Shown here piece after piece: positions 2,250 through 50,160 of a stretch of DNA of 64,000 nt (position 1 is the stretch's first letter; each line of letters opens with the position of its first letter). The DNA is from Chromatiales bacterium (GTDB lineage Bacteria; Pseudomonadota; Gammaproteobacteria; JAGRGH01), in assembly GCA_020445605.1 (NCBI GenBank), contig JAGRGH010000054.1, positions 18,705 to 82,704 of the forward strand, given 5' to 3'. Position numbers and translations under genes: made by a program. A model generated the notes under the pieces. That model saw only the letters and a list, made by a program, of their open reading frames with translations, had not been told where the DNA came from and ran no database searches.

Positions 2250-2394
2250 ACGCGGGTTCCGGGTTGTTATGCGTCACGATGGCCGTCACGGGGGTGCCGA
2301 CCGTGGCCCGCTGCTTCTGACGGGCTGTCCGGCGATTTTAGCAGCACGGCGCGAGAGTGCATGGCCAAGGCAACGCCGTGCCGGCCGGGGTGGG

Positions 2395-3456
2395 TCAGAA
2401 CGCGTCCGCGGGCAGAAGCTCGACCGGCAGGCGATACCTGGATGCACTGCGCATGATCGCTCCGTCGATGCGCTCGCGCGCTTGGTCATCGAGTTCGTCG
2501 CGCCAGCGTTCGTCGCAGCGCACATCACCCGCGCCGCCCAGCCGCATGGCATTGCCGAGGATGTGGTGTTCCACACCGCGAAAATCGGCGGGCAGCGTGT
2601 GACGCTCGAGTCCCAGCGCATCGGTGAGCCGGTCAACGGCCGTTTGTGGCTGGCTGCAGAGCGTTTCGTAGTGCAGCACCGAGCGCCGCTCGAAACGACG
2701 GAGTACGCGCTCGATCTGCGCCTGTTCGCGCGCCCAGCGGGCGACGGACGCCTCCAGCGGCATGCCCCATTTGCGCCGCACCGATGCCGCGAACGCGCGC
2801 GGGTCGCGCACGAGATGCACGGCCGTCAGCTGCAGACGCGGGTCGCGCGCCAGGTGATTCAGTCGATGCGGCGACTTGGCGGCATCGACAAATGCCTGGG
2901 CGCCGAAATGGGCCAGGGCCGTGTCGACCAGCACGCGGTTTGCGGCCAGCGCACGGCGCAGCTCTCCACTGGTTCCGGGCAGGCGCCACAGCAGGGCGTC
3001 ACGCAGCGGTTCGACCTTGCCCAGTGCCCCCGGCAGCGGCCCGGTCAGCAGGCGATTGCGCCGGCCGTCGGCACTGAGCGCAAAGCGGGTGCCGAAGTTG
3101 CGGAAGTCAAATGGCAGCTTCGCCACCGCGAACGCCGCGGCGAGTTCACGAAAAAACACGCAGTCCGGCACGCGCGCCCCGCACGAGCAGCGATAGTCCT
3201 CGCCGTCGTTCCATGACCAGCCCTCCGCCTCGCTGATCGTTGCGATCCGCGGGTGGGTATTCAGCAGGAACGCGAGCAGCGTCGAGCCCGAATATGAGGA
3301 GGCGCTGATGTAGAGGTACGGGATCACGCCCGCGCTCGCAGTGGCTCGAATCGCTTCGCCTCGATCCGCCAGGCGCGGGCGGATGCCGTGAGCACCAGAC
3401 AGGATGGCCCGCCATGGGTCCGCGCGCGACCGGCCGCGCCCGGGTTCAGAATCCAC
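2395..3456 (-). CDS. Sulfotransferase-family protein (start uncertain)
   Basis: PAPS-binding P-loop-like motif VIPYLYISASSYSGSTLLAFLL in the N-terminal region. The ORF as tracked overlaps the upstream metallophosphoesterase gene by ~130 bp, so the true start is probably internal, near 3330-3360. Confidence 0.5.
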   Translation of the reverse strand: MDSEPGRGRSRADPWRAILSGAHGIRPRLADRGEAIRATASAGVIPYLYISASSYSGSTLLAFLLNTHPRIATISEAEGWSWNDGEDYRCSCGARVPDCVFFRELAAAFAVAKLPFDFRNFGTRFALSADGRRNRLLTGPLPGALGKVEPLRDALLWRLPGTSGELRRALAANRVLVDTALAHFGAQAFVDAAKSPHRLNHLARDPRLQLTAVHLVRDPRAFAASVRRKWGMPLEASVARWAREQAQIERVLRRFERRSVLHYETLCSQPQTAVDRLTDALGLERHTLPADFRGVEHHILGNAMRLGGAGDVRCDERWRDELDDQARERIDGAIMRSASRYRLPVELLPADAF

Positions 3457-10245: not shown

Positions 10246-11439
<1,194 letters not shown>

Positions 11440-11470
11440 ACGTCAGAACGAGGCCGAGGTCGGAGGGCGT

Positions 11471-13195
<1,725 letters not shown>

Positions 13196-13217
13196 GCGGC
13201 CGCGCCAGCAGCAGTTC

Positions 13218-14444
13218 GTGCCGAACTTCCGCTACAAGGCCGCGACCGCGGGTGGTGAAACCGTAGACGGCGAGATCGATGCCGACTCGCGTGCGCGTGC
13301 GGTCGCACAGTTGCAGTCGCAGGGCTACATCCCGATCCGTATCGACGAAGTCCGCGCGCAGTCCACCAGCGGACGTCTGCTGTCGCTGCGGCTCGGCGAG
13401 GGTGGTCGGCGGGTGTCGGCGAAGGAAATCACGCTCATCACCAGCGAACTCGCAACGCTGTTGCGCGCCGGTCTGCCGCTGGATCGTGCGCTGACGATCC
13501 TCATCGAGATCAGCGACACGCCGCGTGTCGTCGAACTGCTCCAGCGCATTCAGAAACAGGTGCGCGGCGGCACTGGACTCGCCGATGCCCTCGAGGCACA
13601 GAGCGGCGTGTTTTCGCGGCTCTATGTGAGCATGGTGCGCGCCGGCGAGGCCGGCGGTGCGCTGGAGACCATTCTCGACCGGCTGTCGAAATATCTCGAA
13701 CGCGCCCGCGAGCTGCGCGCGACGGTGACCAATGCGCTGATCTACCCGACGATTCTTGCGGTCGTCGCGGGGCTGTCGGTCGTGTTTCTGCTGACCTTCG
13801 TCGTGCCGAAGTTCGAACAGCTGTTTCAGGACGCGGGCAAGGCCCTGCCGTTTGCGACCGAGATTGTGATCGCCGCGGGCCGGATCCTGCGGGAATGGTG
13901 GTGGGCGCTGCTGCTCGCGATCGTACTGGGCTGGGCGGCGTTGCGCACGCAGCTCGCAAATCCGGAATTCCGGCGCAGTTGGGACGCGTTCTGGCTCAGG
14001 CGCTGGGTGATTGGCGACCTCATCCGCAAGGTCGAGACCGCGCGCTTCGCCAGGACGCTCGCAACGCTGCTGAACAACGGCGTGCCTTTGCTGTCTGCGC
14101 TTGAGATCGTGCGCGAGACCATCGGCAACCGCGTGCTGGTCGTCGCAATCGCCGACATCACCAAGGGGTTGCGCGAAGGCCAGCGCATCGCCGATCCGCT
14201 GCTTGCGACCGGACTGTTTCCGCCGCTGGCGATCCAGATGCTGAAGGTCGGCGAGGAGACCGGGCAGATGGAAGGCATGCTCGAACAGGTCGCCGAAACG
14301 TATGATGTCGAGGTTCGCAACGCCGTAACGCGGGCCGTTGCGCTGCTCGAGCCCGTGATCATCATCGTGCTCGGACTGCTGGTGCTCGGCATCATCGTCT
14401 CGATCATGGTGGCGATCCTGAGCATCAACGACTTGGCTTTTTGA
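13218..14444 (+). CDS. gspF: Type II secretion system inner-membrane platform protein GspF
   Basis: 408 aa with two GspF/PilC repeats (...LLRAGLPLDRALTIL... / ...LLNNGVPLLSALEIV...). GTG start 22 nt after gspE. Confidence 0.9.
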   Translation: MPNFRYKAATAGGETVDGEIDADSRARAVAQLQSQGYIPIRIDEVRAQSTSGRLLSLRLGEGGRRVSAKEITLITSELATLLRAGLPLDRALTILIEISDTPRVVELLQRIQKQVRGGTGLADALEAQSGVFSRLYVSMVRAGEAGGALETILDRLSKYLERARELRATVTNALIYPTILAVVAGLSVVFLLTFVVPKFEQLFQDAGKALPFATEIVIAAGRILREWWWALLLAIVLGWAALRTQLANPEFRRSWDAFWLRRWVIGDLIRKVETARFARTLATLLNNGVPLLSALEIVRETIGNRVLVVAIADITKGLREGQRIADPLLATGLFPPLAIQMLKVGEETGQMEGMLEQVAETYDVEVRNAVTRAVALLEPVIIIVLGLLVLGIIVSIMVAILSINDLAF

Positions 14445-14478
14445 ACCGCGTAGCGGCGGAACGAACCGGAGATCTGTC

Positions 14479-14916
14479 ATGCAACATCGATCCTGCAATG
14501 CGCCACGCCGGGCGCGCGGTTTCACGCTCATCGAGTTGATGGTGGTCATTGCCATCCTCGCGCTGCTCGCCGGGCTGGTCGGTCCGGCCGTCATGAAGAA
14601 GCTCGGCAAGGCCGAATCCGATGCGGCGCGCCTGCAGATCGAGGATCTGGCCGCCTCGCTGGATCTGTACCGACTGGAGAACGGGCGTTATCCGACGACC
14701 GCGCAGGGTCTGGGCGCGCTGATCGAGGCGCCGGGCGATGCGCCGAACTGGAACGGGCCGTACCTGCGCAAACAGAAGGTGCCGAACGATCCCTGGGGTC
14801 GTGAGTATCAGTACCGCTCGCCGAGCGACCACGGCGACTACGAGATCGTCTCGCTCGGTTCGGACGGCAACGAAGGCGGCGACGGCGACGCGCGCGATAT
14901 CCGCAGCTGGGAGTAG
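14479..14916 (+). CDS. gspG: Type II secretion major pseudopilin GspG
   Basis: Prepilin signature RG|FTLIELMVVIAIL and the conserved GspG C-terminus SLGSDGNEGGDGDARDI. Confidence 0.9.
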   Translation: MQHRSCNAPRRARGFTLIELMVVIAILALLAGLVGPAVMKKLGKAESDAARLQIEDLAASLDLYRLENGRYPTTAQGLGALIEAPGDAPNWNGPYLRKQKVPNDPWGREYQYRSPSDHGDYEIVSLGSDGNEGGDGDARDIRSWE

Positions 14917-14923
14917 CGCCGCC

Positions 14924-15382
14924 ATGGCCGGGCGCCGGACGCCGGCGGGCGGGTTCACAATCCTCGAACTCGTGGTCGTGCTGGCCGTGCTGGCTCTGGT
15001 CGTGGCGCTCGCGGCACCGCGCTTCGCCCGCGGCATCCAGGCCGCGGCGCTCGATTCCACGGCCCGCGAGCTGCTCGCGGGGCTCAAATACACCCGCAGC
15101 CACGCCGTGTCCGAGCACGACGAGGCGGTCTTCTATCTGAACCTCGAGGACCGCTGGTTCCGTCTGCCCGGTTCGGATCGGCGCCACGGTGTTCCGGAGA
15201 ATCTGGATATGGAACTCGTCACCGTCGAATCCGAACGCGACGGCGAGGTCGGCGGCGCGATCCGCTTCTTTCCCGACGGCAGTTCGACCGGCGGACGGGT
15301 GTCACTCGTCGTCGGCGAGCGCAAGCGTCATGTGGACGTGGACTGGATGGGCGGCCGTGTGCGGATCCTCGACGAGTCCTGA
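14924..15382 (+). CDS. gspH: Type II secretion minor pseudopilin GspH
   Basis: MAGRRTPAGG|FTILELVVVLAVLALV prepilin N-terminus; size and position after gspG. Confidence 0.7.
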   Translation: MAGRRTPAGGFTILELVVVLAVLALVVALAAPRFARGIQAAALDSTARELLAGLKYTRSHAVSEHDEAVFYLNLEDRWFRLPGSDRRHGVPENLDMELVTVESERDGEVGGAIRFFPDGSSTGGRVSLVVGERKRHVDVDWMGGRVRILDES

Positions 15383-15794
15383 GCGCTCGCTGCGCGGCGC
15401 GCGCGAGGGCGGATTCACGCTGCTCGAGGTGGTCGTCGCGTTCGCGGTCGCGGCCCTTTCGATCGGCATCATCTACCAGATCTACGCCAGCGGGCTGCGC
15501 GCCACCGCGATGGCCGAAGAGTACACCCGCGCCGCCATGCTGGCCGAGGCCGCACTGGCGCAGACGGGCATCGAGGAGCCGCTCGTCGAGGGCGATCTGG
15601 AGCTGGAGTCTCCCGATGAGGCCTTTCGGCTGGAGCGGAGTATCGAGGCGGTCGAGATCGAGGAACCCGACGGACTCGCCGGCGTGGAGCTGCAGCAGAT
15701 GTATCGCGTCGTAGTGACCGCCCGCTGGGAGGCCGGCGGCAAACCGCGCGAGGTGCGGCTCGAGACACTCCGGCTCGCGAACGTCGAGCCGTAG
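15357..15794 (+). CDS. gspI: Type II secretion minor pseudopilin GspI (start uncertain; overlaps gspH 3' end)
   Basis: GG|FTLLEVVVAFAVAALSIGIIYQ prepilin N-terminus and GspI-like size. Earliest in-frame GTG is at 15357; the leader would be unusually long (~19 aa). Confidence 0.6.
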   Translation: MCGSSTSPERSLRGAREGGFTLLEVVVAFAVAALSIGIIYQIYASGLRATAMAEEYTRAAMLAEAALAQTGIEEPLVEGDLELESPDEAFRLERSIEAVEIEEPDGLAGVELQQMYRVVVTARWEAGGKPREVRLETLRLANVEP

Positions 15795-20972: not shown

Positions 20973-21695
20973 TTGAGCCCCGGGCGCTGTCGGTGGTCGC
21001 CCGCGGCCGTTGTACTGTTGCTTTGCGGTACCGCAGTCCTCGCGGGGCTGAGCCTGTGGCAATGGTCGCGCTCCGGCGAGAAGCAGCGGCTGATCGATGA
21101 ACGTGTGGCCGCCGAGGCGCATGGACAGTTCGCCACCCCGGAGTCGATTCGCGCTGATCCGGGCCGATTCCGGTACTGGCAGTTCGATGCGGACGGACGG
21201 TATCTCGCCGGGGCGAACTGGTTGATCGACAATCAGGTGCGCGACGGACGGCTCGGCTACTCGGTGCTGAGCCTGTTTCGGACCAGCGACAGCGAACTTG
21301 CACTGATCGTCGATCGGGGCTGGATTCCGGCCGATGCGGCGGGAGTCGCGGACGGGCTGGATGGCCCGGGTGCATCCAGCCGGATACGCGGCCGGCTCGT
21401 CGATGCGCCGGATGTCGGTCTGCGACTGGGTAGCGCGGCGGAAATGGCCGTTCCCGGCATCGTGCAGTACCTGGATATCGATGCCGTTTCGGCGCGACTT
21501 GGAAGGCCGCTGCTGCCGCTGGTGCTGGAACTCGATGCGGACGCACCGGGCGCATTCGAGCGCAGGCGGGTCAGTGCGGACCCATTCGGTCCGGACAAGC
21601 ATCGCGCGTACTCTGTTCAGTGGGCCCTGCTCGCGGTCGTGTACGTCATCGTATTCACGCTCGCGCGCTGTGCACGTCGTGGAGAAGGCAAATGA
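20973..21695 (+). CDS. SURF1-family cytochrome oxidase assembly protein
   Basis: N- and C-terminal TM helices, central periplasmic domain, C-terminal YSVQWALLAVVYVIVF typical of SURF1. TTG start per ORF track; true start uncertain. Confidence 0.8.
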   Translation: MSPGRCRWSPAAVVLLLCGTAVLAGLSLWQWSRSGEKQRLIDERVAAEAHGQFATPESIRADPGRFRYWQFDADGRYLAGANWLIDNQVRDGRLGYSVLSLFRTSDSELALIVDRGWIPADAAGVADGLDGPGASSRIRGRLVDAPDVGLRLGSAAEMAVPGIVQYLDIDAVSARLGRPLLPLVLELDADAPGAFERRRVSADPFGPDKHRAYSVQWALLAVVYVIVFTLARCARRGEGK

Positions 21696-22306
21696 ACACA
21701 TCGCAATCTGCTTCACAGCGCCCCGCCGCGTCCGGGAGCGGGCGGCGTACGCTCGTGCTCGTGTTTCTGCTCGGCGCGGCGCCGGTCGTCGGCGCGTACC
21801 TGCTGTTCTATTTTTTTCCGGACTGGATACCGCGTTCGACCATCAACCACGGCACGCTGGTGTCGCCGGCCCGGCCGCTTTCCGTTGAGAAGATCGTCGA
21901 TGCCGATGGCAAGCCGCACGGCATCGAATTTCTGCGCGGACACTGGACCTATGTGCATTTCGTCGATGGCGGCTGCGACGACGACTGCGCGAATGACCTC
22001 GTCGCCACGCGCCAAGTGCGCCTGACCACCGGCAAGGATATACAGCGCGTGCGCAGGGTCCTGGTTGCGTCCGGCAGTGCGGTTGCGGGCCTGCGCTCGC
22101 AGCTGCTCGCGGCGCATCCCGATCTCATGATCGTGTCGCTTTCGGGCGATGCGGTCGCCTTCCGTGGACAGTTCGAGTCGGCGACCGGTGCGCGCATGTT
22201 CCTGGTCGACCCAATCGGCAACTTCATGATGTATTACGTCGACCGTGATCCAAGCGCCATGCGCAAGGATCTGGCTCGCCTGCTGAAGGTCTCGACCGTT
22301 GGCTGA
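21692..22306 (+). CDS. Cox-cluster membrane protein with SCO1/SenC-like thioredoxin-fold motif (variant CxxxC = CDDDC)
   Basis: N-terminal TM (LVLVFLLGAAPVVGAYLLFYFF). GHWTYVHFVDGGCDDDCAN resembles the SCO motif GHW..L.FFG.T.CPDVCP. ATG overlaps the SURF1 stop (ATGA). Confidence 0.5.
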   Translation: MNTSQSASQRPAASGSGRRTLVLVFLLGAAPVVGAYLLFYFFPDWIPRSTINHGTLVSPARPLSVEKIVDADGKPHGIEFLRGHWTYVHFVDGGCDDDCANDLVATRQVRLTTGKDIQRVRRVLVASGSAVAGLRSQLLAAHPDLMIVSLSGDAVAFRGQFESATGARMFLVDPIGNFMMYYVDRDPSAMRKDLARLLKVSTVG

Positions 22307-23297
22307 CGGGGGACGCCGGTTTGCGCTGATCGTGTTTGCGGCGCTGGCGCTCGCGGCCATCGTCGTACCGCTCGGTGCGTATGTGCGTCTGTCCGACGCG
22401 GGGCTGGGCTGTCCGGACTGGCCGGGCTGTTATGGACAGATTGGTGTTCCGGAAGCGGCCCATCACATCGAACAGGCGAATCTCGCCTATCCCGAACGCC
22501 CGGTCGAGGCCGCGAAGGCGTGGAAGGAAATGATCCATCGCTACTTCGCTGGGGCGCTGGGACTGCTGATCCTCGTCGCCGCGATCGTGGCGATCGTTCG
22601 GCGCCGGCTGCCGGATCAGCCGGTCGCACTGCCGGTGTTTCTGCTCCTGCTTGTCATCTTTCAGGCCGCGCTCGGCATGTGGACCGTGACCTGGCTGCTG
22701 AAACCGGCCGTTGTGACCGCCCACCTGATCGGCGGCATGGCGACACTCGGGCTGCTCGCGTGGCTGGCGCTGCGGGTCGGTCGCCCAGCGCGGTTGGAAG
22801 TGAGTGCCGGCACGCGCTGGCTGGCGCGCGCCGCACTGGTCGTTGTCATCGCGCAGATCACGCTCGGCGGCTGGGTCAGCACGAACTATGCGGCGATCAT
22901 CTGTGATGACTTCCCGACCTGTCAGGGCCGGTGGTGGCCGCCGATGGACTTCGCCGACGCCTTTCATATCTGGCGCGGGCTGGGGATCGACTACGAGGGC
23001 GGGGTGCTCGGCAACGACGCGCGCGTCGCCGTGCAGATGACCCACCGGATCGGCGCGCTCGTCACCCTGCTGTTCGCCGGACTCGCCGCGGTCGGCGCGC
23101 TGCGCGCACGCAGTGCCGCGGTGCGCGGTCTGGGCGTGCTGGTGGGAGTCGCGCTGGGCGCGCAGATTGCGCTTGGCATCGGCAACGTCCTGCTCGATCT
23201 GCCGCTCAGTGTCGCCGTCGCCCACAATGCCGTTGCAGCCGCGTTGCTGCTGTCGCTGATCTGGCTAAACTACGTCTATGTCCGCGCACCTGAGTGA
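22299..23297 (+). CDS. ctaA: Heme A synthase (COX15/CtaA)
   Basis: Multi-TM protein with conserved His-containing helices ([36 protein letters not shown]). Confidence 0.85.
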
Positions 23298-24171
23298 CAC
23301 CGGCGAAACGCCCCTGTGGCGCGAGTATCTGGAGCTGACCAAGCCCCGGGTCGTCGCGCTGCTCGTGTTCACGGCCCTGGTCGGGATGCTGCTGGCCGTT
23401 CCCGGCGCCGTGCCGTTTCGCGTGCTGTTCTACGGCAACCTGGGCATTGCGCTCGCCGCCGCCGGGGCCGCGGCGATCAACCATGTGGTCGACCGGCGGA
23501 TCGATGCCGTCATGGCGCGTACCCATGCTCGGCCGGTGCCGACCGGGCAGATCGAGTCGCGCGACGCCCTGATGTTTGCGTTCGGGCTGTCGGCCGCGTC
23601 GATGCTCGTGCTGGTGGTGTTCATCAACGTGCTGACCGCGGTGCTGACTTTCGTGTCGCTGATCGGCTACGCGGTCATCTACACGATGTACCTCAAGCAT
23701 GCGACGCCACAGAACATTGTGATCGGCGGTGCCGCGGGCGCCGCGCCGCCGCTGCTCGGCTGGACGGCAGCAACCGGCTCGGTCGATCCGGGCGCCCTGA
23801 TGCTGTTCCTGATCATCTTCATCTGGACGCCACCGCATTTCTGGGCGCTGGCCATCGCCCGGAAGGACGACTATGCGAACGCGCGCGTGCCGATGCTCCC
23901 CGTCACCCATGGTGACGCGTTCACCCGCACGCACGTGCTGCTCTATACGCTGCTGCTGCTGGCCGCGACCCTGCTGCCGTTTGCGACCGGCATGTCCGGC
24001 GGGTTCTATCTCGGCGGTGCGCTGGCGCTCAATGCCGGTTTCCTCTACTACGCCTGGAAGCTCAAGTTCGATTCCGATCCGAAACTGCCGATGCAGACCT
24101 TCGGCTACTCGATCATCTATCTCACGGCCCTTTTTGCATACCTGCTGATCGATCACTACTTGGCCCACTAG
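23278..24171 (+). CDS. cyoE: Protoheme IX farnesyltransferase (heme O synthase)
   Basis: [24 protein letters not shown]..., UbiA-family Asp-rich motifs ([19 protein letters not shown]). Start overlaps the ctaA 3' end. Confidence 0.9.
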
Positions 24172-24565
24172 CCGGGACTTGATCCGTAGCCGAAGCTTTC
24201 GGCCGGGTCGCGCTTCGATCGATCCAATCAATATCGGGTGATCTGACGCGTCGGACGCTGGTCCGACGCCGGTCGTGGCGTGCCTGATCGATGGAATGCG
24301 CGACTGGCATTGGTGTTGAGTTGGTCGGACTCGGCGGACGCGCGGCGGCCCGCGGTAGGCTTTTGCGCGAGCTTGTTTGACGACGTTCTCGGACGGTTGA
24401 TCAGTCCCGCTGATATTTTTCGCCCATCGAAAAACAATGCCGCCGACGGGTCCATGGCGGTTTGCTGGATGCAAAGTGTGATTCCGGTTCCGGGCGTGCG
24501 CAACGCCTGGCGGGCGTGGCGAACGGCAAAGGCAATCAACCACTCGGTCATGGGGGCGGGCGACG

Positions 24566-26893
24566 ATGGATGTCAGTCAAGGGGGTTTGTGCGCGCTGGG
24601 CGCGCGGTTGGGGCGAGGCATTGGACGCATAATCGTCTGCTTCGGTGCGGTCGGGCTGTTCGCATCGGGACAGGTACTTGCCGCCTCCGGCGGGCTGCTG
24701 TCGCTGCAGATCCCCGGGATGGTGCCGGCATACGCCCCCGGCGTCACCAGCTACACCATTCCGGACGACGGAACATGCTCGATCCCCGTCACGGCCACGC
24801 TGAACGATCTCTCGCTCAGTCTTTACGTGCAGAGCAATCCGACGGTGAGCGGCGCGACCGCCAACGCGTGGGTCTGCGGGAGCCACAGCACGCTGTCGGT
24901 CGTTGTCTACAGGAACTGGAGCGAGGTCGAGCGTCTCAGCATCACCAAGGGTGATACCGCGTCGCTGCCGGTAACGCCACCCCCCGAACCAACGCCGCCG
25001 GACGAGCCGGAGGAGACCGCCGCGGGCAGCGGTGGCGCACTGGCTTCCCTTGTCGTTGCCGGCCTGAGCCCGGCATTCTCCGGCGCGACGCACCACTACA
25101 CGATGCCGGACCCTCCGAGCTGTTCGGTGCAGGTCAAGGCGACGCTCGCCAATCCGCAGCATCAACTCCAGGTGCAGGGCAATCCCACCACGAGCGGCAG
25201 CACCGTCAGCGCATGGGTCTGCGACGGCCACCCCAAACTGAGCATCGTCGTCTACTCGAACTGGACCGAGGTCGGCCGTTACACGGTGTACAAGGCGTCC
25301 GAAGGTCTGCCGCCCGATCTGCCGGTCGACGATGGCGGTGGCACTCCATCACCCGGCGGCTCCGAACCCACGATTGGCGACGGTGGCGCAGACAGCGGCA
25401 GCGGTGGCGGTGATGCCGGCGGTTCGCCCGGCAGCGACTATGAGCCCAGCCCGACCGGGTATGCCGAGGCGGCGCGGATGCTGTCATACGCAAGCTTCGG
25501 GCCCGACCCCGAATCACTCAATGATTTTGTCGATCTGGGTGCAGACGCGTGGCTGGATGCGCAGTTCGCCATGCCGGCGAGCCTGATCCCGAACACCGGT
25601 GACATGAACGGCTTGCGCGCGCAGGTCTTCGCGAACATGGCGACCGGTGAGGGTCAGCTGCGCCAGCGCGTGATCTTCGCGCTGGGGCAGATTCTCGTCG
25701 TGTCCGCTAACAAGAACGTCAACGCCTACGAGATGGCGCCATGGGTGCAGTTGCTGTCGGACAACGCCTTCGGGAACTACCGAACCCTGCTGCGTCAGGT
25801 GTCGATCAGCCCATCAATGGGCAAGTACCTTGATCACGCCAACAGCCGCAAGGCCTCGGCCACGACGGCGCCAAACGAGAACTACCCGCGCGAGCTCATG
25901 CAGCTGTTCAGCATCGGGCTGTGGCAGCTGAAGCAGGACGGCAGCCAGGAGCTGGACGGCACAGATCAGCCGATCCCGACCTATACCCAGAACGAGCTGC
26001 GCGAAGTCGCCCGGGCCCTGACCGGATGGACCTATCCGACCGCACCGGGGGCGCAGCCGGGCAATACCAACTGGGAGTATTTCGTCGGTGATATGGAACC
26101 GCGGGTCGCCAATCATGACGCGGGGGCCAAGACCCTGCCGGGCGGCTACGTGATTCCCGCCGGGCAGACGCCGGATCAGGATCTCGACAGTGTCCTCGAC
26201 TTTCTGTTCCATCATCAGAACGTCGCGCCGTTCGTCGCCACGCGCCTGATCCGCCTGCTGGTTACGAGCAACCCCTCGCCGGAGTACATCGCGCGCGTCG
26301 CGGATGCGTTCGATGACAACGGAACTGGCGTGCGCGGAGATCTGAAGGCGGTTATTCGCGCGGTGCTGACCGACGTCGAGGCCACCGATGCGGAGGTTGC
26401 CGGACGTGCGCGACTCAAGGACCCGATCGTGTACTTCATCGGTCTGGCTCGGGCACTGTCCGCGACCTTCAATGATCCATCCGGCTATCAGTACGTCTTC
26501 GCGAATCTGTCCGAGCATCTGCTGACGCCGCCGTCGGTTTTCAGCTTCTACTCACTGATGGCGACGTTGCCCGGTGATGCCCAGCAGTTTGGCCCGGAGT
26601 TCCAGATCTATCCGCCCTCGCTTGCGATTCAGCGCGCGAACCTGGTCTATCAACTGCTGACCAATCAGTTCGGCTCCGCGCTGCAAGTAGACCTTTCACC
26701 CTATCTCGCCCTGGGCGGGAACGTGTCGGATCTGCTCGACAAGATCAACGCGGATCTGTTGCAGGGCCGGATGTCGACCGAGTTGCGGACCATCATCGAG
26801 ACGGCGACGAACGCCGCATACGACGACACCCAGCGCGTGATCGGCGCGCTCTATCTGACGGCCGTTTCCGGCGAATATCAGGTGCAGCAATGA
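24566..26893 (+). CDS. Secreted protein: signal peptide, two tandem cadherin-like beta-sandwich domains, Gly/Ser/Asp-rich linker, C-terminal DUF1800 domain
   Basis: Two ~100-aa repeats, LLSLQIPGMVPAYAPGVTSYTIP...VTATL... and LASLVVAGLSPAFSGATHHYTMP...VKATL... (the L.sL.vs.G.LsPaF....YtV signature of the Pfam cadherin-like domain). C-terminal 470 aa with DUF1800 hallmarks (MAPWVQLLSDNAFGNYRTLLRQVSISPSMGKYLDHANSRK...LMQLFSIGL...TGWTY). Confidence 0.75.
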   Translation: MDVSQGGLCALGARLGRGIGRIIVCFGAVGLFASGQVLAASGGLLSLQIPGMVPAYAPGVTSYTIPDDGTCSIPVTATLNDLSLSLYVQSNPTVSGATANAWVCGSHSTLSVVVYRNWSEVERLSITKGDTASLPVTPPPEPTPPDEPEETAAGSGGALASLVVAGLSPAFSGATHHYTMPDPPSCSVQVKATLANPQHQLQVQGNPTTSGSTVSAWVCDGHPKLSIVVYSNWTEVGRYTVYKASEGLPPDLPVDDGGGTPSPGGSEPTIGDGGADSGSGGGDAGGSPGSDYEPSPTGYAEAARMLSYASFGPDPESLNDFVDLGADAWLDAQFAMPASLIPNTGDMNGLRAQVFANMATGEGQLRQRVIFALGQILVVSANKNVNAYEMAPWVQLLSDNAFGNYRTLLRQVSISPSMGKYLDHANSRKASATTAPNENYPRELMQLFSIGLWQLKQDGSQELDGTDQPIPTYTQNELREVARALTGWTYPTAPGAQPGNTNWEYFVGDMEPRVANHDAGAKTLPGGYVIPAGQTPDQDLDSVLDFLFHHQNVAPFVATRLIRLLVTSNPSPEYIARVADAFDDNGTGVRGDLKAVIRAVLTDVEATDAEVAGRARLKDPIVYFIGLARALSATFNDPSGYQYVFANLSEHLLTPPSVFSFYSLMATLPGDAQQFGPEFQIYPPSLAIQRANLVYQLLTNQFGSALQVDLSPYLALGGNVSDLLDKINADLLQGRMSTELRTIIETATNAAYDDTQRVIGALYLTAVSGEYQVQQ

Positions 26894-26916
26894 GCGGTCA
26901 AGGGAGGAAGTCAGCC

Positions 26917-28263
26917 ATGCGCAAGACCAATCGCTCACGTCGGATGTTCCTGTCCCGCTGCGCGGGTCTCGGCGCCGCCGCGGCGGGATTCGGATGGGGT
27001 GGGTTTCCGCGCGCGGCCCGCGCCGCCGTGAGTGACTACAAGGCACTCGTGTGCGTGCAGCTGCTCGGCGGCAATGACGGCAACAACGTCATCGTGCCGG
27101 TGGACTCCGGTCGATACAGTGCGTATCAGGCGATGCGCGGCGGATTGACGCTGTCGGGCAGCGAGTTGCTCGATCCGATTGCCGACGCGCTCGGCAATCC
27201 ATATGCGCTGCACTACGGGCTGACCGAAATCCACGATCTCTACGAGAGCGGCCGCGTGGCGTTTGTCCTGAATACCGGAATGCTGCACGGGCCGCTGACG
27301 CGCGCCCAGTATCTCGCGGGACAGAATTCGCCAAGCAACCTGTTCTCGCACTCCGATCAGACCGTGCAGATCCAGACCGGCACGCCGGTCCCCGACGGCA
27401 GGGGCTGGGGCGGTAGGCTGCTGGACCTGTTTGCGGTCGGCGACAGTCTCGCGGCGGTCTCGGTCTCCTCGCCCAGCCTGCTGTTGCAGGGGGCCAATAT
27501 CGCCCCGAACATCGTGCCGCCCGGTTCGGACCTTGGCATCTGGGGCATGGGCTTGTGGCCGCAGTCCGCGGCCGCGGCACGACGCAGCGCGCTCGAACAG
27601 ATCGCCTCGATGGGCTCGTCTGACCCCATCGTGGCGCGCGCGAACGCAACGCTGGCAGACGGCGTTGCGCTTTCCGATACCCTGACCTCAGGCGCTGCGC
27701 TGCCGGCCCTGTCGACGGACTTGCCGGCAACGTCGATCGGTAATCAGCTGAAGGAGGTTCTGCGGCTGATCCGCTCGCGCTCGGCGGCCGGGCCGGGCCG
27801 CCAAGTGTTCTACTGTACCTTGGAAGGTTTCGATACCCATGGCGGGCAGGACTGGCAGCACTGGTCGCTGCTTTCGCAGCTGTCACAGGCGGTTGCGGCC
27901 TTCCATGAATCAACGGTGGAGGCGGGGCTGTCCGACCAGGTCGTACTGTTTACGCAATCGGAGTTCGGTCGCACCCTGCAGCCCAGCGGATCGGGCTGTG
28001 ATCACGGCTGGGGCAGCCATCATTTCGTGGTCGGTGATGCGGTACAGGGCGGAATCTACGGCCAGATGCCGACCTTCGCGCTGGGTGGCCCGGACGATGC
28101 CAACAACCGCGGCGTATGGATACCGACGATCGGCACCGCGCAGTACGGTGCGACGCTGGGCCGCTGGTTCGGCGCCAGCGATCTGGCTCTGGAATCGGTG
28201 TTTCCGAATCTGTCAGCGTTCCATGCCAGCACCTACGGTACTGATGTCGGATTCATGGGATAG
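26917..28263 (+). CDS. DUF1501 domain protein with Tat signal peptide (sulfatase/alkaline-phosphatase-like fold), partner of the DUF1800 protein
   Basis: SRRMFLSRCAGLGAAAAGF (twin-arginine motif); DUF1501 core (ALVCVQLLGGNDGNN...TLEGFDTHGGQ...GCDHGWGSHHFVVG). RBS GGGAGGA before the ATG at 26917. Confidence 0.8.
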   Translation: MRKTNRSRRMFLSRCAGLGAAAAGFGWGGFPRAARAAVSDYKALVCVQLLGGNDGNNVIVPVDSGRYSAYQAMRGGLTLSGSELLDPIADALGNPYALHYGLTEIHDLYESGRVAFVLNTGMLHGPLTRAQYLAGQNSPSNLFSHSDQTVQIQTGTPVPDGRGWGGRLLDLFAVGDSLAAVSVSSPSLLLQGANIAPNIVPPGSDLGIWGMGLWPQSAAAARRSALEQIASMGSSDPIVARANATLADGVALSDTLTSGAALPALSTDLPATSIGNQLKEVLRLIRSRSAAGPGRQVFYCTLEGFDTHGGQDWQHWSLLSQLSQAVAAFHESTVEAGLSDQVVLFTQSEFGRTLQPSGSGCDHGWGSHHFVVGDAVQGGIYGQMPTFALGGPDDANNRGVWIPTIGTAQYGATLGRWFGASDLALESVFPNLSAFHASTYGTDVGFMG

Positions 28264-28301
28264 GAGAGGCCGGCGAACGCGTGCGGGGATTGCCGAAAAG
28301 A

Positions 28302-28321
28302 AAGGGGCCTGCCGGCCCCTT
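28302..28321. terminator. Bidirectional intrinsic terminator between the DUF1501 gene and rpoH
   Basis: aaggggcc-tgcc-ggcccctt is a perfect 8-bp GC-rich stem, with T-rich flanks on both strands (cttgtt on +, tcttttcgg on -). Confidence 0.55.
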
Positions 28322-28347
28322 CTTGTTGAGGTCTGATTCCGGTTCGA

Positions 28348-29205
<858 letters not shown>

Positions 29206-29303: not shown

Positions 29304-30254
29304 TCAGGCCGGCTGGATGCGCCGCAGATGCCGGGCGACCGACAGCCAGGCCCCGCCCAGTCCCAGTGCCACGCCGACGCCGAGTACCGCGGCCGTGGTC
29401 TGGAGCCCCGGAAAGCCGACTGTGACACTGCCCTCGTACAGGGTCGCCAGACGTTGCACCGGGCCGGCCAGGGCCAGCAATGCGGCGCTGCACAAAATCC
29501 AGCCGAGCAGGGCACCGAGCAGGCCGTACCAGAGCCCGGCGTAGAGAAACGGCCGGCGAATGAACGCATCGTCCGCGCCGATGAGCTTTTCGACCTCGAT
29601 TTCCCGCCGGCGGTGCTGGATCTCCAGCCGGATGGTGTTGCCGACGATCATCACCACGGCCAACGCCAGCAGCACCCCGATCACGATGGCCCCGCGCCGT
29701 CCGGCGGCGAGCAGGGCGTCGGCGCGCTCGATCCAGCCACGATCGAGGCTCAGCGCGTCCACCCGCGCGTCGGTCCGCAGGGTCGCCGCGAGCGCGGGGG
29801 CGTCGACACTGGCCGGCAGGGTCAGCAGGATCGTCGCCGGCAGCGGCGAAACCTCGAGCAGGTCGAGCGCATCGCCGAGCCCGCTGTACTCGCGGAACTC
29901 GGCGGTTGCCGCCGCCTTGTCGACGTAGTGCGCGGAACTGATTTCCGGGCGCGTGGCCAGTTCCGTGGCGAGTGCCTGGCCGGCGGTGTCGTCGACGGCC
30001 GCGGCCAAAAACAGCGAGATATCCGCCTCCGTATAGGCCTTCGCGGTGACGGCCTGCGCGCCGCTGGCGAGTTCCACCAGCGCGGCCGGCAGAGCCAGCG
30101 CGACGGCAATCACCCCCATCGTCAACACGCTGGCGAGTGGCGCGCGCAGCAGCCGGCCGAGGCTCGAGACCGCCGCCTCGCCATGCCGTGTGGCCCAAGC
30201 GCTGATGCGCCAGCCGCGGGATCGCGCGCGGCGCGCGCCCGTTCGCGGGCTCAT
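29304..30254 (-). CDS. ftsX: Cell-division ABC transporter permease FtsX
   Basis: 4-TM FtsX architecture (LGRLLRAPLASVLTMGVIAVALALPAAL...). The tracked 506-aa ORF is over-extended; the real ATG at 30254 overlaps the ftsE stop (ATGA). Confidence 0.9.
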   Translation of the reverse strand: MSPRTGARRARSRGWRISAWATRHGEAAVSSLGRLLRAPLASVLTMGVIAVALALPAALVELASGAQAVTAKAYTEADISLFLAAAVDDTAGQALATELATRPEISSAHYVDKAAATAEFREYSGLGDALDLLEVSPLPATILLTLPASVDAPALAATLRTDARVDALSLDRGWIERADALLAAGRRGAIVIGVLLALAVVMIVGNTIRLEIQHRRREIEVEKLIGADDAFIRRPFLYAGLWYGLLGALLGWILCSAALLALAGPVQRLATLYEGSVTVGFPGLQTTAAVLGVGVALGLGGAWLSVARHLRRIQPA

Positions 30255-30913
30255 CCGGAGTCCCCGACCAGCCGTCCGCCGCGCAGCGTCAGGCGCCGAT
30301 GCCCCATGCGCTCGACCAGCGCCAGATCGTGGGTCGCGATCAGCACCGTCACGCCGACGTGGTTGAACAGTTCGAACAGCCGCATGATCTCGGCGGAGAG
30401 TTCCGGGTCCAGGTTTCCGGTGGGCTCGTCGGCGAGCACCAGCGCCGGACGATGCACGATTGCTCGTGCGATGCCGACGCGCTGCTGTTCGCCGCCGGAC
30501 AGCTCGATCGGGAAGCGTTCGCGGTGGCTCAGCAGGCCGACCTTGTCGAGCGCCGCATGCGTGCGTTTGAGAATGTCGCGATGCGCAATGCCGCGTACCA
30601 CGAGCGGCAGCGCGACGTTGTCGAACACTGTGCGGTCGAACAGCAGGTGATGGTCCTGAAACACGATGCCGAGCTGCCGGCGGTGGTCGGCGATGCGCCG
30701 GTAGGGCGTGCGGTTCAGGTGCCGGCCGTTGACATGCAGCTGACCACGGGTCGGGCGTTCGATCAACGCCAACAGTTTCAGCAGGGTGCTCTTGCCGGCG
30801 CCGGAGTGCCCGGTCAGAAAACACATCTCGCCGGGATCGACATGCAGGTCAATGTCGACCAGCGCGTCGTGCGGGCCCGGGTAGCGTTTGGAAACGCCCT
30901 CGAAGTGGATCAC
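30251..30913 (-). CDS. ftsE: Cell-division ABC transporter ATP-binding protein FtsE
   Basis: Walker A GHSGAGKST, ABC signature LSGGEQQRV, Walker B LVLADEPTGNLD; 220 aa. Confidence 0.95.
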   Translation of the reverse strand: MIHFEGVSKRYPGPHDALVDIDLHVDPGEMCFLTGHSGAGKSTLLKLLALIERPTRGQLHVNGRHLNRTPYRRIADHRRQLGIVFQDHHLLFDRTVFDNVALPLVVRGIAHRDILKRTHAALDKVGLLSHRERFPIELSGGEQQRVGIARAIVHRPALVLADEPTGNLDPELSAEIMRLFELFNHVGVTVLIATHDLALVERMGHRRLTLRGGRLVGDSG

Positions 30914-44486: not shown

Positions 44487-45119
44487 TTAGCAGGTGTGTT
44501 GGGGCTTGTTTCGCGTCAGGCCCATCCCGGCGAGTCCGAGGCCGAACAATGCCAGGATGCCGGGTTCAGGGACTGCGACGCGGACCAGCCAGTTACCCCA
44601 GGCCGCATTGGTCCAGTCGGATGCGTCCGAATTGAGGATGACGCGGGATCTGTCCGAATTCGAGCCAGGGGGCGCGGTGTAGAAGCTATACCGCAGGGTG
44701 GCGCCACCAACGCCGTCCAGTGCATTGCCATCATCAAACAGCCCCTGGGCGGAGAAGGTTCCGCCATCTGCGATGGACTGGGAAAATGTCCGCCCCAGCA
44801 GATCGATCAACGACAGCATCGGCGCCGAGGCCGCGCCGTCATACGGGGGGGCGAAGCCTGCGTTGGTGAACAGCGTGGTGACTTCCGAGATCGTCGCATG
44901 GCGCCACCCCTGGAAATCGCCACCGACACCAAAATGACTGGAAACATCGTCGAAAGAACGGCCCTGTGAGCTCGTAAGATCCAACCACAGAAGGTTCTGA
45001 TCTGTATCGGTCGTGGTCATGCCGTTGTCGATCAGGACCGCAGATGCGGGGCTCGCCAGCAGGCCAATTGCGGCGAACGTCAGGCAGCGGGCCGTGGTAA
45101 GCGCTCTGATTTTCGTCAT
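44487..45119 (-). CDS. Secreted DUF1566 (Lcl C-terminal-like) domain protein with PEP-CTERM sorting signal
   Basis: Signal peptide MTKIRALTTARCLTFAAIGLLASPASA. LIDNGMTTTDTDQNLLWL...GGDFQGWRHATISEVTTLF (DUF1566 pattern). C-terminal VPEPGILALFGLGLAGMGLTRNK is canonical PEP-CTERM (PEP + TM + basic tail). Confidence 0.75.
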   Translation of the reverse strand: MTKIRALTTARCLTFAAIGLLASPASAVLIDNGMTTTDTDQNLLWLDLTSSQGRSFDDVSSHFGVGGDFQGWRHATISEVTTLFTNAGFAPPYDGAASAPMLSLIDLLGRTFSQSIADGGTFSAQGLFDDGNALDGVGGATLRYSFYTAPPGSNSDRSRVILNSDASDWTNAAWGNWLVRVAVPEPGILALFGLGLAGMGLTRNKPQHTC

Positions 45120-47367: not shown

Positions 47368-48066
47368 ATGAGAGCATTACCGCTGCAACGCGGAGCGGCT
47401 ATTGGCCTGCTGATCCTTGCGCTGTCCGCCACACCCGCCCGGGCGACTTTGATCGACAACCTCGACGGTACGGTGTTGGACGACGTAAGTGGATTGGTTT
47501 GGACGAAGAACGCGAATCTCGCGGCGAGCAACACCTTCGGTGTGGGCGGCATCGCTGCTACCGGGAGGATGACCTGGGACACCGCCCAGGCGTGGATCGC
47601 GGCGATGAACGCGGCGAACTATCTGGGCTTCAACGACTGGCGACTGCATACGATCACCGACACCGGCGCGCCGGGCTGTGACTTTGCCTTCACGGGTACG
47701 GATTGCGGCTACAACGTGGATCTGGGCACGGGAGAACTCGCGGACCTGTGGTACCGGGCCCTGGGTAACATCCCTTACTACGACACCAGCGGTAACGGAC
47801 CCCAGGCCGGCTGGGGCCTGACCAACACCGGCCCGTTCGACAATATGCAGTCCGACTACTATTGGTCGGGTACCGAGTACGCACCCAGTACCGTTAACGC
47901 GTGGACCTTCCACACGGACCGCGGCTACCAGGACCTCAACCTTAAGACCAATCTCTTCTATGGTTGGGCGGTTCGTACCGGCAATGCCGGCGTACCGCTG
48001 CCGGGAACGGCACTGCTGCTGGGGCTGGGGTTGCTCGGCCTGACGGCACGTCGCCGTCTTGCGTGA
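47368..48066 (+). CDS. Secreted DUF1566 domain protein with PEP-CTERM-like C-terminus (VPLP variant)
   Basis: Signal peptide. LIDNLDGTVLDDVSGLVWTKNA...FNDWRLHTI...YYWSGTEYAPSTVNAWTFHTDRGYQD...YGWAVR (strong DUF1566 pattern). C-terminal GVPLPGTALLLGLGLLGLTARRRLA. Confidence 0.7.
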   Translation: MRALPLQRGAAIGLLILALSATPARATLIDNLDGTVLDDVSGLVWTKNANLAASNTFGVGGIAATGRMTWDTAQAWIAAMNAANYLGFNDWRLHTITDTGAPGCDFAFTGTDCGYNVDLGTGELADLWYRALGNIPYYDTSGNGPQAGWGLTNTGPFDNMQSDYYWSGTEYAPSTVNAWTFHTDRGYQDLNLKTNLFYGWAVRTGNAGVPLPGTALLLGLGLLGLTARRRLA

Positions 48067-48076
48067 CCCCGGCGCC

Positions 48077-48345
48077 GTAGGGTGCGTACCACGCACCATT
48101 TTCGGCGCATGATCACTCCATACGGTGCGCCGTGCGCACCCTACTCACACCGCACATGTAGGGTGCGTACCACGCACCGCATACGGCATTTCAGACTTCC
48201 GGTGCGCCGTGCGCACGCTGCCCACACCGCACATGTAGGGTGCGTACCACGCACCATATCCGGCGCGTGATGATTCGACTCGGTGCGCCGTGCGCACCCT
48301 ACTCACTGGCGGCTGGCTCCGCTGCGCCGTTCGCACCCTGCCCAC
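48077..48345. repeat. Three and a partial fourth tandem copies of an ~80-bp REP-like element, each with imperfect inverted repeats
   Basis: gtagggtgcgtaccacgcacc at 48077, 48158 and 48235. Its imperfect reverse complement cggtgcgccgtgcgcaccctac(tcac) at 48123, 48200 and 48281, with a degenerate copy at 48319. Period 77-81 bp. Intergenic between the PEP-CTERM gene and cinA. Confidence 0.7.
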
Positions 48346-48508
48346 AGTGCACACCTGCGCAATGCGCGCCGTTTGCGCGGCGCCTGGCCGGCGGGTCGGA
48401 ATACTCGGACACGACTCCGTCAAATCAGCCGACAAGCGGTCCGTGCCGGCCTGCTAGACTTCCGGCGGTGCGATTTGCAGTCTGGCCCCGCTGCCCCCGG
48501 AGCGTGTC

Positions 48509-48994
48509 TTGAGCGACCTTCTCAACCTGCTGGTGAGTTTCGCCGGAGAGCGGCTGGTCGCGCGCGGCTGGAAGCTGGCCGTGGCCGAATCCTGCACCGG
48601 CGGGTGGATCGGCAAGGCCATCACGGATGTCTCGGGCTCCTCGGCCTGGTTCGAGCGCGGCTTCGTGGTCTACAGCAATCAGGCGAAGGTCGACCTGCTC
48701 GGGGTGAAGCCGGCGACGCTGGAGGCCTATGGCGCCGTCAGCGAGCCCACCGCCCGCGAGATGGCGGACGGCGCGCTGGCGCGCTCGCGCGCGCAACTCG
48801 CCGTGGCGGTCACCGGCATTGCCGGCCCGGACGGCGGCAGCCGCGAGAAGCCCGTCGGCACGGTGTTTCTGGCCTGGGCCGCGCGCGACGAGGAGACCCG
48901 CGTGCAGCGCATGCGCTTTCTCGGCGATCGTGCCGAGGTGCGGCTGCAATCGGTGCAATCCGCGCTGCAGGGGGTCGTGGACCTGCTGTCCTGA
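48509..48994 (+). CDS. CinA C-terminal-domain protein (PncC-like NMN deamidase)
   Basis: [39 protein letters not shown]...[12 protein letters not shown]: CinA_C signature. Short form upstream of recA, as in Pseudomonas. TTG start. Confidence 0.8.
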
Positions 48995-49042
48995 TCCGGC
49001 CCGCGGCCGGCCGTCCTGCCGCCGTTGCGTCGCGACGCCCGG

Positions 49043-49062
49043 TTACTGTATGTTTAACCAGT
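49043..49062 (+). promoter_or_regulatory. Putative LexA (SOS) box upstream of recA
   Basis: TACTGTATGTTTAACCAGTA is a palindromic CTGT-N8-CCAG, one mismatch from the gammaproteobacterial CTGT-N8-ACAG consensus. It lies 58-77 nt upstream of the recA ATG. Confidence 0.55.
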
Positions 49063-49119
49063 ATCGGCCTGCGAGCGAACGGGCCACCCGAAAACAAGCT
49101 GCCAAAGAGAGTTTCAACG

Positions 49120-50160
<1,041 letters not shown>

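Follow-up and report, generated by a model that had tools for sequence, protein, structure and literature searches.

The contig JAGRGH010000054.1 of a Chromatiales bacterium carries, directly downstream of the cytochrome oxidase genes and the haem synthase genes ctaA and ctaB, two adjacent genes for exported proteins of the DUF1800 and DUF1501 families, which raises the question of whether this pair belongs to the oxidase assembly machinery or has a function of its own. We analysed the locus within a window of 64,000 nucleotides (nt), to which all coordinates refer, with the main open reading frames (ORFs) taken from an ORF list and its translations. The pair is genuine and typical of its kind, an exported gene pair that is very widespread and functionally uncharacterised, and its place after ctaB is incidental, without a functional tie to cytochrome oxidase. 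Rather than serving oxidase assembly, the two proteins probably constitute a self-contained module of the cell envelope or exterior that combines a metallo-esterase with a glycan-targeting partner.

The product of the first gene matches DUF1800 (PF08811, COG5267) over residues 305-773 (E = 3e-80; 270.9 bits, cut-off 26.1; profile positions 2-419 of 419), and that of the second matches DUF1501 (PF07394, COG4102) over residues 42-390 (E = 5.5e-30, 105.2 bits against a cut-off of 27); neither matches any NCBIfam model. Both proteins are 100% identical to sequences annotated at NCBI as DUF1800 and DUF1501 domain-containing proteins from a Chromatiales metagenome-assembled genome (MAG), and the identical DUF1501 protein is present on 23 contigs from several samples, with the same arrangement wherever the flanks are visible. 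NCBI starts the DUF1800 gene at a TTG codon (24608), yielding a form of 761 aa. For DUF1501, a longer ORF of 457 aa (26890-28263, plus strand) begins at an ATG that overlaps the DUF1800 stop codon (ATGA) and offers an alternative start; the 448-aa form is the public database version and places the RR motif where homologues have it. The spacer between the two genes measures 23 nt and contains the ribosome-binding site. Both ORFs, and the close junction with its TGA, GGGAGGA and ATG, are located as given in a preliminary description of the locus, and the DUF1800, DUF1501 and Cadherin-like families named there were all recovered with Pfam.

The two genes are strictly paired. We compared 46 other loci carrying the pair, comprising 37 with a DUF1800 relative (one genome per species) and nine further loci of close homologues with two cadherin-like modules followed by DUF1800. 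Of the 37 genome loci, 35 have DUF1501 directly 3' of DUF1800 and the remaining two stop at a contig edge; the nine further loci all show the same order. The pairwise identities of the two proteins are tightly correlated (r = 0.98; 15 loci, 105 locus pairs), as would be those of any vertically co-inherited gene couple. Clustering of the neighbouring genes across the 46 loci revealed nothing that recurs besides the pair itself, and the flanks of the nine further loci are unrelated, including CRISPR-Cas, sulfite reductase, Lon protease, PQQ dehydrogenases, and others. In three loci, one of them labelled Vicinamibacterales (Acidobacteriota), a gene for a TPR and CHAT (caspase-like protease) protein of ~920 aa follows DUF1501 on the same strand after 10-20 nt (L124, 11633-14386; L125, 11702-14458; L126, 11613-14387), suggesting a lineage-specific three-gene operon of DUF1800, DUF1501 and TPR-CHAT.

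No linkage to cytochrome oxidase was found from either direction, an outcome named beforehand as refuting the link to the cox cluster implied by the preliminary description. Within 10 kb of the pair, none of the 37 genome loci encodes a homologue of coxA, coxB, coxC, ctaG, SURF1, ctaA, ctaB, rpoH or ftsY, and all 46 loci lack cox genes, ctaA and ctaB within 8-10 kb, as well as ftsY; one metagenomic locus (L038) does have a sigma-70 gene downstream of the pair, but an unrelated one. Conversely, a metagenome scan for ctaB yielded 80 loci at 59-71% ctaB identity, none of which contains a DUF1800 or DUF1501 homologue. In a number of relatives (L044, L056, L058, L060, L070, L122), 113-1,200 nt lie between ctaB and a convergent rpoH, beyond which comes ftsY. 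The ctaB-rpoH interval, which measures 4.2 kb in the window and is occupied by the pair, extends from 113 nt to ~5.8 kb among relatives and holds genes for an aspartyl protease (L058, L070), a Sel1 protein (L070), MsrB and MsrA (L072), GcvP (L099), a CcoI-type copper ATPase (L100, L113) or SCO1/SenC (L096). Because the cargo differs among relatives, the ctaB|rpoH junction is a variable slot, used recurrently for insertion beside the conserved cox and rpoH-ftsXEY arrangements, and the pair is one insertion among many.

The place after ctaB had been described as that of senC, and in Pseudomonas it is occupied by the SCO1/SenC copper chaperone (PA0114). In the present lineage this is not the rule, SCO1/SenC being found there in only two of the 80 loci (L096 and, by tblastn, L085). 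The pair resembles SCO1/SenC in lying immediately after ctaB on the same strand, but neither protein has a Pfam match (PF02630), sequence similarity or fold similarity to it, and the linkage to cox is not conserved. It is thus barely credible that the pair assists the biogenesis of cytochrome c oxidase in this organism by delivering or processing periplasmic copper or haem in place of SenC/SCO, even though it stands directly 3' of ctaA-ctaB with no terminator detected, the 64-kb window contains no SCO1/SenC homologue (tblastn with SCO1 of L096, E 0.3 or worse), and the ctaB-adjacent slot holds SCO1 or copper ATPases in four relatives. Beyond the reciprocal absence of the pair from the 80 ctaB loci and of cox genes from the 46 pair loci, the DUF1800 gene follows ctaB after a gap of 394 nt, both proteins lack a thioredoxin fold and a CxxxC motif, the cluster already has its own redox-active disulfide protein, of the PA0111 type, and other relatives fill the slot with unrelated genes.

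What the pair does do is best approached through the DUF1501 protein. It carries a twin-arginine (Tat) signal, SRRMFLS at residues 7-13 of 448, as had been reported, although this is not the unusual trait it was thought to be: RRxFL is present in 47 of 47 aligned homologues, 27 of which match the Pfam TAT_signal model. An AlphaFold model (mean predicted local distance difference test [pLDDT] 69.6, predicted template modelling score 0.71), confident in the core and poor in loops 144-154, 161-214 and 353-364, has the core alpha/beta fold of the alkaline phosphatase superfamily, with NPP enzymes and PafA as the best fold matches. At the sequence level, a profile search of the Protein Data Bank (PDB) up to E 10 matched no solved chain, and permissive Pfam scans of the 47 homologues and of 54 DUF1800 homologues for remote families returned TAT_signal and low-complexity matches only.

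Across 22 DUF1501 homologues (32-65% identity), the conserved residues are D54 (within GG(N/A)D, following strand 1), T/S128 (at the start of helix 129-133), S144-H145-x-D147-Q148, GWGG 163-166, D306-x-H308, FGRT 350-353 and D362-H363. Of these, D54, T/S128, H145, D306-x-H308 and D362-H363 are candidates for the active site. The order D, T/S, D-x-H, D-H is presumably that in which NPP-type enzymes carry their bimetal site and nucleophile, the correspondence being one of motif order, and the geometry of the metal site is only putative because the loops bearing S144-H145 and D362-H363 fall below a pLDDT of 50. Like alkaline-phosphatase-superfamily hydrolases (ENPP6, 5ege; Xac NPP, 7mw8; PafA, 5too; type I sulfatases), DUF1501 has an Asp after strand 1 and a Thr/Ser at a helix N-terminus, followed by D-x-H and D-H in the expected sequence. 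Unlike them, it has an additional conserved region with S-H-x-D-Q and GWGGR (144-170) and an obligate partner gene, is ~10% identical without similarity at the level of hidden Markov models (HMMs), and lacks the C/S-x-P-x-R motif of sulfatases. In its broader form, C/S-x-P/A-x-R, the formylglycine motif is likewise absent from the DUF1501 of the window, and formylglycine-like matches in 7 of the 47 homologues are scattered and non-aligned.

These features would also suit phosphate scavenging, in which DUF1501 would act as a phosphatase or phosphodiesterase of the PhoX/PhoD kind, exported by Tat and induced by phosphate limitation, and DUF1800 would capture the substrate. The superfamily fold with its best matches to NPP enzymes and PafA, the Tat export and the missing formylglycine motif all agree with such a role. 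Nevertheless, we regard it as unlikely, given that no pst, pho or phn genes occur in any Pfam-labelled neighbourhood and that the lectin-type modules of the partners favour the targeting of polymers over soluble esters.

The DUF1800 protein consists of a Sec-type signal peptide, two beta-sandwich modules, each followed by a disordered linker, and a largely helical domain (Table 1). A hydrophobic N-terminus with an AxA-like site at its end precedes module 1 in the 54 aligned homologues, all of which carry Sec-type signal peptides. Module 2 matches the Cadherin-like family (PF12733) over residues 159-241 (E = 2.8e-6, 28.1 bits against a cut-off of 24.2); the family is cadherin-like only, and the match does not make the modules true cadherin repeats. 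Module 1 is below threshold for this HMM by itself, appearing as a weak second stretch in the permissive scan, but it is 44% identical to module 2 (E = 1e-28) and is modelled as all-beta with pLDDT 89-96; the two tandem cadherin-like repeats ahead of DUF1800 reported earlier are therefore borne out. Each module contains one Cys pair spaced by 33 residues (C71/C104 and C186/C219). The first pair is kept wherever homologues have module 1, and in module 2 Cys219 is invariant and Cys186 is present in 52 of 54 homologues. The Gly/Ser/Asp-rich linker of the preliminary description is also real, with 16 G, 9 P, 8 S and 7 D among 53 residues (245-297), and is disordered in the model.

According to Foldseek, the N-terminal modules resemble the tandem Ig modules of S-layer and grappling-hook proteins, which, together with the Cadherin-like match, could be taken to mean that the DUF1800 protein is chiefly a surface adhesin attaching the cell to other cells or to surfaces. 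We consider this very improbable: there are just two small modules, with no lipobox, sortase or PEP-CTERM signal and no autotransporter, the conserved part is the helical domain of 480 residues while the modules are swappable, and the obligate pairing with an enzyme-like protein would be left unexplained.

The helical domain is modelled with high confidence (mean pLDDT 83.8 for the whole protein, mostly >90 for residues 298-775), yet neither a profile search up to E 10 nor structure comparison gave it an analogue in the PDB. Among 20 homologues (33-60% identity), 52 residues of the protein are invariant, including the motif P436-x-E438-N439-x-x-R442-E443-x-x-Q446-L-F448 and the polar residues D545, N552, D603 and E678. 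Such a set, with E438, N439, R442 and E443 among its members, in a confident model without a solved analogue could belong to an enzyme of a new helical fold, with DUF1501 as an accessory or maturation factor, or with both proteins catalysing consecutive steps; a C-terminal core preceded by variable carbohydrate-binding or Ig modules is, moreover, the typical architecture of carbohydrate-active enzymes. DUF1800 shows no recognised catalytic signature, however, and the full Asp/His motif set of DUF1501 argues that the latter is itself active, making this assignment of roles improbable in our estimation.

Comparison across the family shows that the N-terminal extension, previously singled out as unusual, is ordinary. 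The layout of PF12733 followed by PF08811 in proteins of ~740-775 aa is shared by 91 of the best 120 homologue clusters, with labels including Methylococcales, Alphaproteobacteria and Vicinamibacterales, whereas shorter forms without a PF12733 call come from Tectomicrobia and Acidimicrobiia. An exhaustive search for DUF1800 returned 10,348 representative clusters (50% identity) at E <=0.001 and 2,634 at E <=1e-30. The domain is nearly always C-terminal, and ~80% of the top 150 representatives are extended N-terminally, the longest extensions reaching 1,350 residues. In seven long members scanned with Pfam, the extensions contain, for instance, four Laminin_G_3 and four PKD domains; PA14, two NPCBM domains and fn3; an NHL propeller with an Ig domain; TIG; Big_2; or I-set. 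The guess that the extension binds carbohydrates or surfaces fits this pattern, lectin- and Ig-type modules occupying the same position in other members, and the glycan targeting proposed here is supported because they do so.

The pair also has known relatives in other contexts. In one of them, DUF1800 and DUF1501 are reported to have been co-transferred with bacterial chitin synthase operons (PMC5122149), an association that a glycan-directed role fits. The pair of the chitin synthase islands and that of the window share both Pfam families, their order, the close spacing, the twin-arginine DUF1501, and movement or inheritance as a unit (PMC5122149); the window pair differs in its isolation, neither a chitin synthase nor a sugar epimerase being close by, and in the two cadherin-like modules of its DUF1800 protein, themselves common in the family, as noted above. 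A glycan-directed role also fits the Planctomycete modules in which DUF1501 is combined with PSCyt/PSD1 proteins carrying Laminin_G_3, F5/8-C or Big_2 domains (PMC3542564). In these Planctomycete and Verrucomicrobial systems, too, a DUF1501 protein with a Tat or other signal peptide accompanies a large exported partner, often with carbohydrate-binding or Ig-like modules; in the window, by contrast, the partner is the DUF1800 protein, which lacks cytochrome c motifs and gave no match to PSD1 up to E 10.

Taken together, these observations are consistent with the following scheme. A horizontally mobile two-gene module would have landed in the variable junction where the cox-ctaA-ctaB operon faces the convergent rpoH-ftsXEY operon. 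DUF1501, a putative divergent metallo-esterase of the alkaline phosphatase superfamily and of the NPP/phosphatase type rather than a formylglycine sulfatase, would fold in the cytoplasm, probably acquire its metals there and then be exported by Tat. The DUF1800 protein, exported by Sec, would act through its helical core with DUF1501, probably in a 1:1 ratio, while the two disulfide-stabilised Ig-like modules on their flexible linkers may direct the complex to a polymeric substrate or set its spacing there. The most likely substrate would be a glycan or glycoconjugate with phospho- or sulfo-esters, located in the periplasm or at the surface.

Several points weigh against this interpretation. 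The DUF1501 model is of moderate quality, with both the S144-H145 and the D362-H363 loops in poorly modelled segments, and its identity to the solved enzymes of the superfamily is, as stated, very low. Casting DUF1800 as the partner rather than the enzyme is a guess, because the domain is without a structural analogue. The neighbourhoods of the pair yield no clue to the substrate, and a literature search found no experiment on any DUF1800 or DUF1501 member. Finally, read-through co-transcription of ctaB and the DUF1800 gene is possible, because no intrinsic terminator was found between them. A more specific version of the envelope-module interpretation, which we put forward tentatively and with distinctly less confidence, is that DUF1800 and DUF1501 are the subunits of an obligate extracytoplasmic enzyme, in which a helical subunit of new fold with swappable lectin or Ig modules might present a glycoconjugate to the divergent esterase.

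Table 1. Coordinates of the gene pair, its parts and the adjoining features in the window
Feature	Position	Strand	Details
ctaA	22299-23297	+	
ctaB	23278-24171	+	
Gap between ctaB and the DUF1800 gene	24172-24565	+	394 nt
DUF1800 protein gene (signal peptide, two cadherin-like modules, DUF1800)	24566-26893	+	775 aa, ATG start
Sec-type signal peptide	24566-24685	+	residues 1-40, core IIVCFGAVGLFA, VLA/AS; read from sequence
Cadherin-like beta-sandwich module 1	24692-24952	+	residues 43-129, Cys71/Cys104
Pro/Glu-rich inter-module linker	24953-25036	+	residues 130-157; pLDDT <50 at 135-155
Cadherin-like beta-sandwich module 2	25037-25294	+	residues 158-243, Cys186/Cys219
Gly/Ser/Asp/Pro-rich disordered linker	25295-25456	+	residues 244-297; pLDDT <50 at 251-286
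DUF1800 domain, mostly helical	25457-26890	+	residues 298-775
DUF1800 stop codon TGA	26891-26893	+	
Shine-Dalgarno-like GGGAGGA	26902-26908	+	8 nt upstream of ATG 26917
DUF1501 protein gene, Tat-exported, alkaline-phosphatase-superfamily fold	26917-28263	+	448 aa
Twin-arginine signal peptide	26917-27024	+	residues 1-36, SRRMFLS ... ARA/AV
Bidirectional terminator-like hairpin between DUF1501 and rpoH	28296-28327	both	-20.6 kcal/mol, z -2.9, T-rich tails on both strands
rpoH, convergent	28348-29205	-	ftsX, ftsE and ftsY next on the minus strand

The genes upstream of the pair are, on the plus strand, DUF2244, coxB, coxA, ctaG, coxC, SURF1, a PA0111-like gene, ctaA and ctaB, with a small DUF2909 gene on the minus strand after coxC and before SURF1; the position of the pair behind the haem synthase genes is thus as originally reported, with a gap of 394 nt. 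A promoter and terminator scan of 24100-28420 found nothing on the plus strand, a hairpin after ctaB (24248-24269) is not better than shuffled sequences (z -0.9), and Rfam gave no match over the whole window. The GC content at third codon positions (GC3) is 0.79-0.80 in the pair and 0.81-0.87 in its neighbours, a difference too small to call a recent transfer. Integrases, tRNA genes and flanking repeats were not seen either.

The PA0111-like gene lies between SURF1 and ctaA (21620-22306, plus strand; public call ~204 aa) and encodes a thioredoxin-like redox-active disulfide protein of the PA0111/PP_0108 family, as judged by a precomputed PF26971 match and by NCBIfam NF058629 at E = 2.5e-16, under the curated cut-off of that model. 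It is conserved in the majority of the 80 related cox loci, and the cox cluster therefore has a thiol-redox component despite the absence of SenC. A second cox layout is found in relatives, namely SURF1, PA0111-like and ctaB, followed by coxB-coxA-ctaG-coxC and, where the flank suffices, by rpoH (L057, L062-L064, L066, L068, L069, L083, L084, L089, L105, L111, L112, L114, L115, L117, L121); no ctaA was detected in these loci.

Elsewhere in the window, a partial type II secretion set with GspE, GspF, GspG and another N-methyl pseudopilin (11354-15794, plus strand) lies directly 5' of DUF2244 and the cox operon. Two small proteins with PEP-CTERM-type sorting signals, one with an Lcl_C domain (44487-45119, minus strand; 47368-48066, plus strand), imply an exosortase system in the organism. 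An ORF at 883-3216 (plus strand, 777 aa) has a coding-like GC3 of 0.79 and no Pfam or NCBIfam family. The ORF at 48283-50160 (plus strand) has a longest form of 625 aa in which RecA is confined to residues 286-605; either the true recA start is near 49100 or there is an N-terminal extension of 285 codons. A plus-strand ORF at 29328-30650 (440 aa, high GC3, no family match) was dismissed as a gene: it is the shadow of the minus-strand genes ftsX and ftsE, and its apparent tblastn conservation is the antisense of ftsE (30251-30913, minus strand).

The pair is one more standard example of a catalogued family, carries that annotation at NCBI already, and means little for the window itself. The real question is the DUF1800 family, which comprises >10,000 clusters without a solved structure or structural analogue and whose accessory modules point to glycans. 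The map of conserved residues and the domain boundaries obtained here can be used for choosing a model member for biochemistry, for which cultured carriers (Massilia, Pelomonas, Methylomagnum, Dickeya) offer a better start than a MAG. If DUF1800 and DUF1501 do form a two-subunit enzyme, the family would represent a large, hitherto unrecognised class of enzymes modifying envelope or extracellular polymers, of which the present locus would be one ordinary example.

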